Shown here: positions 22,294-26,172 of the stretch, in pieces
Layout of the letters: every line of letters begins with the position of its first letter
Numbering within the stretch: the stretch's first letter is position 1
Source: a virus
Taxonomy: Duplodnaviria > Caudoviricetes
IMG/VR virus record: IMGVR_UViG_3300031992_000067
Span: 1-64,000 of that record
Reading direction: 5' to 3' (one strand)
DNA: 64,000 bases
Position numbers and translations under genes: made by a program
The notes under the pieces: generated by a model
Told to the model about the DNA's origin: nothing
Database searches by the model: none
The model's input: the letters and a program-made list of their open reading frames with translations, nothing else

Positions 22294-23256
22294 ATGAACG
22301 AGAACATGAACACATACGCCCTCTCCAACCTCCCCTTCAACGGGGACCTTCTGACCTCGAAGGAGCGTGAGGTTATCGTCGAAAGCTGGGACGGGGAGGC
22401 CCAGCTCATCGACGACGTGGCGTCCATCCACGTCGCGGTCCATAGCGGGCAGGAGTTCCACGCCGACGAGGCGTTGGCTCTGGCTCTCCTCCGCGTCCTC
22501 TCAGGCGCGGAGATCACGTGGACTAGGACCCGTGACCCCAAGGTCCTCTCCGAGGCCGACCTCCGGGTCGACGTCGGGGAGGGTCTCCTCGACCACCACG
22601 GGGCCAGGGCCGAGGCCGGGGTAGCCGCCTGCACTCGTGTCTTCGCCCTCCTCCGCAACTCTCGCACCCAGCCCCGCGAGGTGTGGGAGGTCCTGGAGCC
22701 GGTCGTGATCGCCACGGCCGCGATGGACACCGGTATGTCCACGGTCAATGTGAACCCCTGGGTTCACGCGGCGTGCCAGGCGGCCCGCGCCCGCGGCGAG
22801 AACCCCGACGAGGCGTTCGCGAAGGTCGTTGAAAAGATGACAGAGTTCGTCGTCGACCTCGTCGAGGCGGCCCGGGCGGCGGCCAAGGCGAAGGCCGCTG
22901 CGGAGCGCGAGATGGATGAGCTTGGTGACGCTCCAATCGTCATCTTCTCCTCCGCCTCGCGTCTGGCTGACGTGAAGAAGATGATGTGGGAGAAGAAGCG
23001 CGCCTGCATCTACTTCATCAGCCCCGAGTCCGAGTCGGATTGGCGCGTCCTCTGCGCCGCCGACCCGGATAAGCCCTACAGCCCGTTCGACTCCCGCCGT
23101 CTGATCCCGGAGAAGTTCCGGGGTCTCCGCGGCGTGAGCCTTGACGAGGCCGCTGGGACGACTGGCGGCGTATTCTGCCATGCCGCCGGCTTCATCGCCG
23201 GGTTCTCCACGCGCTCGGCGGCCTTCCAGTTCGCCACGGCGTGTCTGGAGGACTAG
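22294..23256 (+). CDS. MYG1 (UPF0160) family DHH-type nuclease
   Basis: HSGQEFHADEALA, RTRD..L..AD..VDVG..LDHH, GGVFCHAAGFIAG. Confidence 0.9.
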   Translation: MNENMNTYALSNLPFNGDLLTSKEREVIVESWDGEAQLIDDVASIHVAVHSGQEFHADEALALALLRVLSGAEITWTRTRDPKVLSEADLRVDVGEGLLDHHGARAEAGVAACTRVFALLRNSRTQPREVWEVLEPVVIATAAMDTGMSTVNVNPWVHAACQAARARGENPDEAFAKVVEKMTEFVVDLVEAARAAAKAKAAAEREMDELGDAPIVIFSSASRLADVKKMMWEKKRACIYFISPESESDWRVLCAADPDKPYSPFDSRRLIPEKFRGLRGVSLDEAAGTTGGVFCHAAGFIAGFSTRSAAFQFATACLED

Positions 23257-23322
23257 CCACCGCACCCCATGCACGTGGGGGTTTCACAAACTTCAAGGCC
23301 CCGGCGCGTGCACGCCGGGAAC

Positions 23323-23354
23323 AAAAGAGGCGGCTAGTAACCGCACTCTTTTTT
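23323..23354 (+). terminator. Terminator after MYG1 gene
   Basis: AAAAGAG-GCGG-ctagtaa-CCGC-a-CTCTTTTTT; preceded by hairpin CCGGCG..CGCCGG. Confidence 0.7.
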
Positions 23355-23380
23355 ACCTTTTTGAGACATGGGTAAAATGG

Positions 23381-23409
23381 CTTAAAAAACGCATAAAATA
23401 CGTTATAAG
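23381..23409 (+). promoter_or_regulatory. Early-type promoter upstream of ncRNA candidate
   Basis: CTTAAA-17 nt-TATAAG. Confidence 0.65.
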
Positions 23410-23415
23410 TATTTA

Positions 23416-24358
23416 CACGGGGAAGATTACGCATCGGCATGGTTCGGTGACGAAACCGTTTCCCGTTGCTCTGGGGTCATCTGGAATGGGACGCACCCCG
23501 GATCCCGTGGAAGCGGGACACTTGAGAGCGGCAGGTCTGGCCGGCGAGCTCGTCGGTTAAGATAAAACTGCGTGGAGATGGATTACCACGCAGGACTTGT
23601 CGCACGCGCCCGGACGGCGCGTGACCTTCCCCCGGGTGGCGGTGAGGGGATGCCGGAATCAAGTAACCGGTATGGAGTTCAGACACGGGCTCCGGCTTGT
23701 TGTGGTTTGGCAACGCAACAGGTTATAAGTCGTGAGGGCATGGCTTAGCGACTACGTGTCTAACCTCTAAGCAGCTCCTTAATCCGGGGAGCATAGGGGC
23801 TGATCAGGGATAGCCTTCTTCCAGAGGTGCCCAGGTGGAATGACGGTCCACCGGCTGCGGATCATAACGATGGTATAACTGCCGCAGCAAAAGACTGTTT
23901 CGGGCCAAGCCTGTTTCGAAGCAGTCCACGTCATTTCAGCTTCTCGGGCCATGTGGAATTCTCGCATCCGCCCCATGGTCCATGTAAAGAGCGATCCCCC
24001 GCGCAAGTGGTTGGCAACATGCGCGGAAGGGTATGCGAGGTACGTCGGAACATCGGCAGCAATGCCATGTTTCTCGGGCGTAGGATAATTCCGGATGGGT
24101 GAGCGTCTCCCCTACCCGGGCATGCCAAAAACCCCTCGAAAGGTGAGGCTGGTTGAATGAGACGCCTGCACGGAATGTCCACGGTCCGTGCGAGTACACC
24201 GCGCCAACGGCGGTAGTGGAACGTTTTCCGGCTTAGGCCGGTAAAGCCCCAGGTCGCAAGGCCAGGGGCGAGGTGGAAGGCCAGGTGCTCCAGCGGACTT
24301 ACAGGCGCACGTTGCGTCTGGGTTTCTGGAAGCTTGGTGGCCCACTAGGCTAGTAACC
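23416..24358 (+). ncRNA. Large structured non-coding RNA candidate (GOLLD/ROOL-class)
   Basis: ~940 nt without a credible ORF, own promoter, many short helices, GNRA loops, long-range helix 23419-23425/23626-23632 and pseudoknot 24103-24109/24159-24165; family assignment not verified. Confidence 0.7.
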
Positions 24359-24377
24359 TTCATAGGAAAGGATTTTT

Positions 24378-24620
24378 ATGAAAACAACTGCGCCGTATCG
24401 CTCCTTCGGCAAGGGCAAGCCCGACAACCTCAACCGGCGTTTCGCCGACCGTACCCGTACCGAACAGGTCGAGCGGGTCTCGGAGGGTGTGGTCGTCCAC
24501 TGGGCGACCCCACGTCCGGACCGCCTGACCGAGAACAAGTCCGAGGAGGAACGCAAGTTCTTCCGGGACTTCGGTCCCAGGTACACCAAGAGGCACCCGG
24601 GGCCGCAGGCCCGCGGGTAG
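24378..24620 (+). CDS. Small basic hypothetical protein
   Basis: SD GGAAAGGA; 80 aa; codon usage like the MYG1 gene. Confidence 0.65.
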   Translation: MKTTAPYRSFGKGKPDNLNRRFADRTRTEQVERVSEGVVVHWATPRPDRLTENKSEEERKFFRDFGPRYTKRHPGPQARG

Positions 24621-24770
24621 TCGGGTGGCAGTCGGGAAAGACCGACCCCAACGTACAGGCGTTGGGGGGTGAAAGCCCCCAGATGGAAAGAAGTGCATCG
24701 TCCGTGCGCCGCATCCAGCGGTGAATACGGACGATGCACGAAGGGAGCCGCGCCTGTGAGCGTTCCTTTT
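24621..24770 (+). ncRNA. Second structured RNA element / 3' UTR ending in terminator
   Basis: CCCCAACG/CGTTGGGG, GGGGGT-GAAA-GCCCCC, 13-bp GTGCATCGTCCGT/ACGGACGATGCAC, then AAGGGA..TTCCTTTT. Confidence 0.5.
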
Positions 24771-24787
24771 ACCTGTTATCCGTGTGG

Positions 24788-24816
24788 CTTAATAAAAGGC
24801 CTAACGGAGTTATAAC
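24788..24816 (+). promoter_or_regulatory. Early-type promoter
   Basis: CTTAAT-17 nt-TATAAC. Confidence 0.65.
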
Positions 24817-24907: not shown

Positions 24908-25123
24908 ATGAAGAAACGTTTCTTCGGCCGCGCCGTACAAGACGGCGTGGTAGTTTGCGAGGGGTTTGAGATCACCCCCCGCGAACATAAGGTCGCGATC
25001 TCCCCTAGGCTCGAGGCCCAGCGCCTCATGCGTGAGCAGGCACAGCGGAGGATGTCCGCCACCACGCGCAGCAATGTCGCGTGGAAACCCATCGTCGCCA
25101 AGGTGGAGGTGCAGAATGGATAG
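24908..25123 (+). CDS. Hypothetical protein
   Basis: 71 aa, SD AAGGA. Confidence 0.65.
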   Translation: MKKRFFGRAVQDGVVVCEGFEITPREHKVAISPRLEAQRLMREQAQRRMSATTRSNVAWKPIVAKVEVQNG

Positions 25124-25538
25124 TAAGTTCTGCCCCTACTGCGGGTCGCCTCTTGCAGGCGACGGCCGCTACTGCGACGCATGCGGGAGCGAAATGCTCC
25201 CCGGCGACGCGCTGACGGCGGATCAGCTCCGTAACTGGGTGCGCCTGCCCCAGTCGGGGTTGCTCTGGGCCTTTGGGCTCGGGGCGGCCTCGGTCGGCAT
25301 CGGCTACATAATCAGCATCCTGTCCATGACGTCAGTCGGCATTATGGGCGCGATGCTGGTAATATCAGCCGGCGCGACCCTCTCGGCGGGAGTGGCCTTC
25401 GCCGGCTACCTTGTCATCCGGCACCTCTTCGGACATCTTGCGGCTCGTCCGCTTGACCGAATGCTGGGTGCGTCTCTCAGCATGGCCGCGGCCTTTGGCT
25501 TCTGGCCGCTTCTCGGGCTGCTCATGGCTGCCCTGTAA
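25116..25538 (+). CDS. Double zinc-ribbon membrane protein
   Basis: ATG 25116 after GGAGG; CPYCG..CDACG followed by about three TM segments. Confidence 0.75.
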   Translation: MDSKFCPYCGSPLAGDGRYCDACGSEMLPGDALTADQLRNWVRLPQSGLLWAFGLGAASVGIGYIISILSMTSVGIMGAMLVISAGATLSAGVAFAGYLVIRHLFGHLAARPLDRMLGASLSMAAAFGFWPLLGLLMAAL

Positions 25539-25542
25539 CACC

Positions 25543-25628
25543 GAACCGACCTAATACCTGGCGGTTCCTTAGATTAGTTCCTTCGCTGGAACGAAATCTC
25601 TGGAACTGCCACGGTATTAGGCCGGTTC
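25543..25628. repeat. 86-nt rod-like inverted repeat
   Basis: GAACCGACCTAATACC/GGTATTAGGCCGGTTC outer arms, GGCGGTTCC/GGAACTGCC, AGATT/AATCT, GTTCC/GGAAC. Confidence 0.8.
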
Positions 25629-25680
25629 AAAACAAGGGATGGGTGGGAGAACCGTCCCCTTTACCTATTGGAGAAACACT

Positions 25681-25947
25681 ATGACAAACGGAACTGAGCA
25701 TCTTACAACAACTGAAATCCAGCAGATCATCCAAAAAGAGCGAGACACATCCAAGAACCGTAACAGGTTCGTGTCGCTTATATCAATTGACTACGGGGCG
25801 CAAGACCCGCTTGCCACAGATCCGGACGACCTTGAGTTCTTCAAGGGCCGTTTCGTGGTAGCGCGGTTTTCTGACGGGACAGAGTACATCCCAGTGGAGA
25901 ACATTCTCTCCATCGGATTCAAGTACGACAACGAACATGAGGACTAA
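25681..25947 (+). CDS. Hypothetical protein
   Basis: ATG 25681 after GGAG. Confidence 0.7.
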   Translation: MTNGTEHLTTTEIQQIIQKERDTSKNRNRFVSLISIDYGAQDPLATDPDDLEFFKGRFVVARFSDGTEYIPVENILSIGFKYDNEHED

Positions 25948-25950
25948 CAA

Positions 25951-26172
25951 GTGGAGATCATACGCAACGAAGACCGCACCATCACACTTATGGCCAGTTG
26001 CCGGCTGTGCGGCGAGAAGCACCTCATAAAAGTGCGCCCGCAGGATTTGGACGCGTGGAATGACGGATCGCATTGTCAGGACGCCTTCCCATACCTTTCT
26101 CCGGGCGAGCGTGAGATGCTGATATCGCACACCTGCGACAAGTGCTGGAGCAAGATTTTCAGCGAGGAGTAG
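25951..26172 (+). CDS. Small zinc-finger protein
   Basis: CRLC...QDAFPYLSPGEREMLISHTCDKCW; GTG start. Confidence 0.7.
   Translation: MEIIRNEDRTITLMASCRLCGEKHLIKVRPQDLDAWNDGSHCQDAFPYLSPGEREMLISHTCDKCWSKIFSEE

Follow-up and report, generated by a model that had tools for sequence, protein, structure and literature searches.

The 64,000-nucleotide (nt) stretch of phage DNA analyzed here, hereafter the window, is the first part of an 82,359-bp IMG/VR record, and it holds on its plus strand, at positions 23416–24358, a large gene-free locus. The evidence is convincing that the 5′ portion of this locus, some 520 nt in length, is a plus strand-specific, conserved and non-coding structured RNA domain. 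We use the label G0 for the locus and the RNA of the window phage, and L-numbers for the loci with which it was compared. As read from its sequence, the locus belongs to a predicted unit of about 1.35 kb that consists of a promoter, the 940-nt structured RNA, a small basic open reading frame (ORF), a structured 3′ element and a terminator, and G0-type RNAs would constitute a new family of large phage structured RNA that is known from three lineages. A preliminary description, made from the letters alone, had presented the whole region as one ornate RNA of about 940 nt. This view stands for the conserved and compact 5′ ~520 nt but not for the 3′ ~420 nt, which comparison with related loci depicts as a lineage-variable mosaic whose smaller modules appear to have been swapped, inserted or lost among lineages.

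The claim that no credible ORF lies between the terminator of the upstream MYG1 unit and the ORF at 24378 was borne out by an ORF scan, by recoding and by gene calls, which all agree. Between MYG1 (22294–23256; Pfam MYG1_exonuc, E 1e-31) and the ORF at 24378–24620, there is no plus-strand ORF longer than 91 amino acids. Coding under alternative genetic codes was ruled out, as neither recoding creates a long frame: reading TGA as tryptophan extends the longest plus-strand ORF to 129 amino acids, and reading TAG as glutamine opens no long frame. Gene callers leave a gap of ~1.1 kb at the same place on four independent contigs of the window phage.

Compared with shuffled sequences, the whole 943-nt region has a folding z-score of −6.5 on the plus strand (−420.7 kcal/mol) versus −1.7 on the minus strand. 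The 5′ domain by itself (23416–23940) yields −5.5 on the plus strand versus −1.8 on the minus strand, while the 3′ part reaches −2.2 on the plus strand, and the thermodynamic signal therefore belongs to the 5′ domain. A fold clearly better than chance, which had been anticipated for the entire region, is thus seen in the 5′ domain, and the 3′ part cannot be told from the rest of the genome. The genome background was taken from 41 control windows of 500 nt on the plus strand, which have a mean z-score of −1.4, a standard deviation of 1.75 and a minimum of about −5.4.

Homologues of the locus were reached only via the neighboring 80-amino-acid protein, ORF80, and comprise the ENA contig L016 and two short ENA contigs, L021 and L022. 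Since L016 is the only readable full-length homologue, the comparative support for the structure comes from this one sequence, which is 93% identical. Across positions 23413–23935 the identity to L016 is 92.6%, with five indels of 1, 2, 2, 1 and 2 nt that would break any reading frame. Mismatches to L016 amount to 6.0% in the 5′ RNA domain versus 14.7% at the third codon positions of ORF80. The 5′ domain is therefore more conserved than the adjacent gene and yet tolerates frame-breaking indels, which argues for a constrained RNA and not a decayed gene. When the L016 domain was folded alone, its z-score was −5.4 on the plus strand versus −2.5 on the minus strand.

A joint fold of the G0 and L016 5′ domains contains 165 base pairs, among which 13 carry one-sided compatible changes, three carry compensatory double changes and none is broken. 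As this joint fold is fitted to both sequences, pairs were also predicted from the window sequence alone and the substitutions in L016 were compared with permutations that keep the substitution types. In the plain minimum-free-energy fold of the window, 11 pairs are broken versus 15.5 expected (P about 0.05). Among the 106 pairs predicted from the window sequence with a probability of at least 0.95, only three are broken versus 8.3 expected (P = 0.009).

The predicted 5′ domain is divided into two subdomains on the plus strand. Subdomain I (23419–23632) is a multi-helix junction that is closed by a GGGGAAG/CTTCCCC helix and bears GUGA- and GGAA-capped hairpins, and it was obtained in single-sequence folds, in the joint fold and in independent folds of L016. 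Subdomain II (23635–23935) is a second multi-helix junction with about nine hairpins, seen in the joint fold; L016 folded alone produces the same set of subdomain II hairpins as the window phage. All of the helices listed in the preliminary description, in both parts of the region, lie at the positions given for them, and several of them are present in the minimum-free-energy fold.

The 3′ part is of a different character. From 23936 to 24377 it shares 45% identity with L016 and is not homologous to it, except for a short block of 27 nt (24122–24148; CATGC.AAAACCCCT.GAAAGGTGAG). The segment ahead of this block, 23936–24121, is a module of the window phage only, without a homologue in any sequence compared, L016 included; it holds the CTCGCAT/ATGCGAG helix, the AACAT...GCAA hairpin and the 5′ arm of a proposed pseudoknot. 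The 3′ arm of this pseudoknot, GAGACGC, is not kept in L021, whose contig stops before the 5′ arm, and L016 lacks the region. Block D (24166–24227) consists of two predicted hairpins joined by GAGTA and is about 90–92% identical in L021 and L022, where it also stands upstream of an ORF80 homologue, and the differences fall within predicted loops and bulges. For the ORF beside it, identity falls to about 72% in DNA and 41–48% in protein. Block D is absent from L016. The remaining 3′ modules (24228–24358) are variable: an insert found in the window phage alone (about 24218–24300), which starts before block D has ended and contains CCGGC-TTAG-GCCGG and a GCAA-capped stem, is followed by a hairpin region loosely common to L021 and L016, with some compensatory changes in this tail before the start codon. 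Homologues are therefore lacking for most of the 3′ hairpins in the preliminary list, namely CTCGCAT/ATGCGAG, the AACAT...GCAA hairpin, CCGGC-TTAG-GCCGG and the second GCAA stem. With a G0-type RNA defined as a ~520-nt 5′ domain upstream of an ORF80-family gene, G0 and L016 both qualify, and the L021 and L022 contigs, which have block D and the ORF in common with G0, end before the 5′ domain.

Upstream of the RNA, the MYG1 unit ends in an intrinsic terminator (23326–23351, plus strand), read in the sequence as GCGG-CTAGTAA-CCGC with a T run and identical in L016. Directly behind it lies a promoter module (23352–23409) composed of TTTACC, CTTAAA (23381–23386), a 17-nt spacer and TATAAG (23404–23409). 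The CTTAAA-17-TATAAG promoter that had been noticed at the outset is thus present and forms part of a module conserved in the clade and specific to it. Two copies of the pattern CTTAA-N15-19-TATAA lie in the window, versus 0.03 expected from shuffles. In every related locus, successive units are headed by a terminator, a T-run, TTTACC, ~12 nt, CTTAAT, 17 nt and G[GT]TATAA, with three to five sites in each of L002 and L007–L012. The sites in the window (22175, 23382 and 24789) head successive short transcription units behind MYG1. The last of these belongs to the next module (24768–24815; TTTACC ... CTTAAT-N17-TATAAC), which bounds the unit on its 3′ side. Terminator and promoter together are 92% identical between the window and L016, the stretch from −35 to −10 is identical, and the next promoter and untranslated region (UTR) are 82% identical.

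No convincing terminator was found between the RNA and ORF80; the candidates at 23673 and 23685 are a subdomain II hairpin without a real U run. The structured RNA lies directly upstream of an ORF80-family gene in three lineages (G0, L016 and L021/L022), with no clear terminator between them and with a Shine-Dalgarno sequence before the ATG in each. The RNA is therefore best described as the 5′ part of an mRNA-like transcript of predicted length ~1.35 kb. It has a promoter of its own, as the preliminary description held, but it is not free-standing, since it shares its predicted transcript with ORF80. We infer that the unit is expressed early.

The Shine-Dalgarno sequence (AGGAAAGGA) and ORF80 (24378–24620) span 24362–24620 on the plus strand and specify a protein of 80 amino acids with an isoelectric point of 10.6. 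At the DNA level ORF80 is 85.6% identical to its L016 counterpart. Four homologues are available, with a conserved C-terminus and an in-frame 15-nt indel, which distinguishes G0 from L016; the L016 protein (P0051) is 76% identical and that of L021 and L022 (P0055) 41–48% identical. The family has no Pfam or PHROG match, and a tblastn search of cultured phages with ORF80 returned no match. Downstream of the gene is a conserved structured 3′ element of 155 nt (24621–24775, plus strand; z −6.5), which contains GGTGAAAGCCCC (24668–24679), ends in a terminator-like hairpin and a T run, and shares 91% identity with L016; compensatory changes occur in the GUGCAUCGUCCGU hairpin and in the final terminator-like hairpin. 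The motif GGTGAAAGYCCC is found as a single copy at the same position in G0, L016, L021 and L002; in L002 the element stands behind an unrelated 67-amino-acid ORF. The element precedes a terminator/TTTACC module and was placed at 1333–1487 in L016, 412–555 in L021 and about 4560–4700 in L002. Its MAFFT alignment with L021 was too noisy for pair counts, and local alignment of the L002 element with the G0 3′ region was not significant (score 20 versus a shuffle maximum of 27).

Covariance-model searches against Rfam 15 gave no match anywhere in the window at the gathering score, whether to GOLLD, ROOL, OLE, RNase P, introns or other models, and with permissive filters at E ≤ 10, 23200–24500 yielded three noise hits only, all outside the RNA. 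No Rfam model of a group I or group II intron, RNase P RNA or transfer-messenger RNA (tmRNA) matched, and ARAGORN returned no tmRNA. These results fit the suggestion of a new class and leave without support the alternative suggestion of a divergent GOLLD, for which short words in the 3′ part had been offered as reminiscent of that RNA. The remark that no tRNA neighbor is visible was accurate: ARAGORN finds none in the window, and the only tRNAs of the record are a tRNA-Met (CAT) and a tRNA-Arg (CCT) at L006 13675–13831 (record 77675–77831), ~53 kb away. No Rfam large RNA stands beside this tRNA pair.

At the nucleotide level, blastn of 23300–24400 against 50,697 GenBank phages found no match, and shared 9-mers were at chance level. 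When five DNA patterns derived from the RNA were run against IMG/VR, four were empty and the fifth returned only L017, which was rejected as a homologue because its 20-mer lies inside a coding ORF. In one JGI metagenome scan the only match, L020, was set aside as chance, having just a 22-mer in common and reading like bacterial coding DNA. Two scans of GTDB genomes returned nothing and seven chance 20–22-mers, respectively. The 20-mer GGTGGCGGTGAGGGGATGCC (23635–23654) has exact copies in one IMG/VR contig and in seven unrelated contigs of bacterial genomes, where it falls within coding or coding-like sequence in both cases inspected, a caution that GC-rich 20-mers are not unique identifiers. 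None of 14 MYG1-based loci contains a G0-type RNA, and the downstream zinc-ribbon gene used as a query reached one distant contig that ends short of the upstream region.

Two further JGI samples hold the same phage at 100% identity, and contigs whose MYG1 and ORF80 proteins are identical to those of the window extend up to 190,627 bp; the window phage is a phage of ~190 kb. Its large terminase is only 27% identical to the terminases of cultured phages of about 180–187 kb, and it therefore represents an uncultured lineage. The IMG/VR relative G001 (loci L002, L004 and L005) retains synteny with the window until MYG1, which is 84% identical, and past this gene is wholly different up to position about 32400, so that the feature sits where a hypervariable region begins. 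Loci L030 and L031, at 100% identity to the window, add no comparison. Farther downstream, the overlapping plus-strand frames at 24908–25123 and 24966–25538 were called as a 71-amino-acid gene and a 140-amino-acid zinc-ribbon gene with an 8-nt overlap, an arrangement that recurs in L016 and L030. The most stable control window, 25501–26000, has z-scores of about −5.9 on the plus strand and −6.5 on the minus strand, symmetric between strands, and contains a 16-nt inverted repeat (25543–25558/25613–25628) between two ORFs. In L016, positions 1–225, upstream of the terminator that precedes the RNA, are AT-rich, with repeated GTTAATAA, GTCAATAAC, TTGTAAA(C/T)A and GTTGACA words and no MYG1; these repeats could point to an operator array or an origin-like element.

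Relatives of the window phage carry other large ORF-free stretches in the same variable region. The G1-type RNA, which starts ATGATGTAGGGGA, is 0.76–1.1 kb long, follows the same promoter module and was found at L002 4735–5495, L007 9893–~11000, L008 9522–~10270, L009 9525–~10270 and L010 9005–9328. It has a core of ~270 nt that is about 80–90% identical across lineages, flanks that differ greatly in length, and some covariation in its hairpins, including one whole-hairpin replacement. The L002 copy folds with a z-score of −7.2 on the plus strand and −4.7 on the minus strand, and the G1-type RNA has no Rfam match. Homology between the G0 and G1 types was considered and rejected: blastn was empty, a G1 core profile run with nhmmer against the window gave nothing below E = 5, and the reverse search was empty. 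At L011 7045–7615 (L012 5160–5730), an ORF-free stretch of ~560 nt lies directly behind MYG1, with a promoter module before it and a terminator after it; the only gene called there is a minus-strand ORF of 175 amino acids, and the stretch has z-scores of −4.6 and −4.8 on the two strands. It may be another large RNA. A further ORF-free stretch, L015 2640–3227 (contig end), starts GGTATAAATAGATGTAGGGAATGG... behind a promoter module; blastn matches it to neither the G0- nor the G1-type RNA. Directly behind MYG1 in L007 (7050–7540) and L008 (7055–7540) is a conserved 35-amino-acid ORF (L007 7200–7307) with coding-type substitutions, which is flanked by structured sequence on both sides, a leader of ~140 nt and a trailer of ~230 nt.

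Building on the observed lack of coding sequence, the promoter and terminator architecture, the strand-specific stability and the conservation above that of the neighboring gene, we propose that the clade-specific promoter behind MYG1 would drive a transcript of ~1.35 kb with the RNA as its long 5′ part. The core of this new-family RNA would be the ~520-nt fold with its two multi-helix subdomains, followed by ~420 nt of exchangeable modules. The folded 5′ domain would itself be the functional product, a scaffold or decoy rather than a passive spacer, and together with the co-transcribed basic ORF80 protein it may act as a ribonucleoprotein, possibly after processing. We consider this reading about as probable as all others taken together. 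Several points weigh against it. Covariation is thin, with one to three double changes and permutation P values of about 0.01–0.05 from a single full-length homologue that is 93% identical, and the 3′ part (23941–24358; −1.2 on the minus strand) folds within the genome background. The link to ORF80 is one of adjacency alone, and the AlphaFold2 model of the protein is of low confidence (predicted local distance difference test score, pLDDT, of 56). No result separates an RNA that acts in trans from a leader that works only in cis. In the relatives, tiny ORFs of other units in the region are likewise flanked by structured UTRs, and heavy structure may therefore be general to such transcripts.

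This last point leads to the main rival, in which the RNA, lacking any role of its own, is a purely cis-acting and unusually long 5′ UTR that controls translation of the ORF80 mRNA or shields it from nucleases. The missing terminator, the adjacency of RNA, Shine-Dalgarno sequence and ORF in three lineages, and a weak A-U hairpin with the Shine-Dalgarno sequence in its loop, which recurs in G0, L021 and L016, are what such a leader would look like, as are the tiny ORFs within structured UTRs in neighboring units of relatives. However, a 520-nt two-junction fold that is conserved above the gene it would regulate far exceeds known bacterial and phage leaders, over 440 nt separate the conserved 5′ domain from the start codon, and this intervening sequence is freely replaced; we judge a pure leader to be a real but minority possibility. 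A free-standing ornate RNA that forms RNA-only multimers like GOLLD and ROOL, independent of ORF80, would fit the size class, the phage origin and the several GNRA-capped hairpins, and it has a precedent in phage-borne RNA cages (10.1101/2024.12.08.627333). Yet the RNA matches neither GOLLD nor ROOL in sequence or structure, has no 3′ terminator of its own and is far from any tRNA, the nearest being outside the window. There is also no evidence of palindromic kissing loops that covary, and the GAGCUC loop at 23545–23550 is not kept in L016. An RNA-only assembly therefore seems unlikely to us. That the RNA is a divergent member of GOLLD itself is scarcely credible and was rejected at the level these covariance-model searches allow: a resemblance of short words was all that spoke for it, neither the search of the window at the gathering score nor that of 23200–24500 at E ≤ 10 gave a match, and it is the 5′ part that is conserved here as opposed to a universally conserved 3′ region in GOLLD (10.1101/2024.12.08.627333).

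The position of the RNA directly behind MYG1, together with the ORF-free structured stretch directly behind MYG1 in L011 and L012, raises the prospect that it is a partner, adaptor or substrate of the MYG1 3′–5′ exonuclease, in the manner of Y RNA with Ro60 and PNPase. MYG1, however, has its own promoter and terminator and may simply be the last conserved gene before the variable region, and L013 has no such RNA. Because the same RNA is preceded in L016 by the AT-rich repeat region and not by MYG1, and because the closest relatives (84% MYG1 identity) have other units after MYG1, this link is weakened, and we hold it to be improbable. Hypervariability between relatives, background-level folding of the 3′ part and its lineage-specific inserts would also be expected if the stretch had no function as an RNA and were instead the remnant of a gene, filler left by recombination, or an element that acts as DNA, for instance an origin or a packaging site. 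Against this, conservation in the 5′ domain and in block D exceeds that of the coding sequence beside them, and folding is strand-asymmetric, as expected if G-U pairs contribute at the RNA level; junk or a DNA-level element is therefore unlikely. The stretch moreover has its own conserved promoter, and no iterons or long repeats were found in it, and we would be surprised if this explanation proved correct.

Our preferred reading, a folded 5′ domain that works with ORF80, can be set within a broader one. Tentatively, and with less than even confidence, we suggest that the variable early region may be a cassette site for several unrelated structured RNAs of 0.5–1.1 kb, comprising the G0 and G1 types and probably others in L011 and L015, with the G0 type as a new ornate class acting with a dedicated small basic protein. 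If true, the region would be an uncharted reservoir of large functional RNAs for host takeover or counter-defence.

To our knowledge, complex folds of more than 500 nt occur in very few RNA classes of bacteria or phages, mainly GOLLD, ROOL, OLE, raiA and HEARO. Each of these has opened structural and functional work, and the roles of the phage ones are still not known. GOLLD, like ROOL an Rfam family of phages and prophages, is often found beside or around phage tRNA genes, which is typical and not strictly defining, and ROOL is about 580 nt long. Autoregulatory leaders, such as ribosomal-protein leaders and the T4 RegA and gp32 operators, are tens to about 200 nt long; they resemble the G0 type in that a structured RNA shares a transcript with the small basic protein gene directly behind it, but G0 extends over 940 nt, and its best-conserved fold is separated from the start codon by more than 440 nt. 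The G1-type RNA shares with G0 the clade, the promoter module, the variable early region, the lack of ORFs and the combination of a conserved core with variable flanks. It differs in having its own terminator, no adjoining ORF80 and no sequence similarity to G0 by blastn or nhmmer.

GOLLD and ROOL are phage-borne RNAs whose function is not known and which assemble into a 14-mer and an octamer cage, respectively (10.1101/2024.12.08.627333). G0 resembles GOLLD in being phage-borne, longer than 500 nt and multi-junction, and in both one half is conserved and the other variable, although the conserved half is the 5′ one in the G0 type and the 3′ one in GOLLD (10.1101/2024.12.08.627333). Unlike GOLLD, the G0 type lacks a match to the model and a tRNA neighbor, and is predicted to be co-transcribed with a protein gene. 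With ROOL it shares phage origin, the lack of a known protein partner or function and, at about 520 nt for the conserved domain, a similar size class; it differs in having no match to the ROOL model and in not lying near a tRNA island. The closest analogy to the proposed pairing of RNA and ORF80 is the OLE ribonucleoprotein, whose RNA of about 600 nt is accompanied by OapA/B/C and bS21; this large structured RNA functions together with proteins that are small and basic (PMC12054373). OLE, however, is a bacterial (Bacillota) chromosomal RNA whose model G0 does not match, no relation of ORF80 to the OLE partners was detected, and the neighbors of the G0 RNA are MYG1 and uncharacterized small proteins rather than OapA and OapB. 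What would set the G0 type apart from GOLLD, ROOL, OLE, raiA and HEARO is its tie to a small basic protein on the same predicted transcript, which offers a direct experimental handle via binding and co-expression. The other large RNAs of its relatives in the same region hint at a broader phenomenon, and if fold and expression are confirmed, the G0-type RNA would be a tractable case for understanding why phages invest in large structured RNAs.

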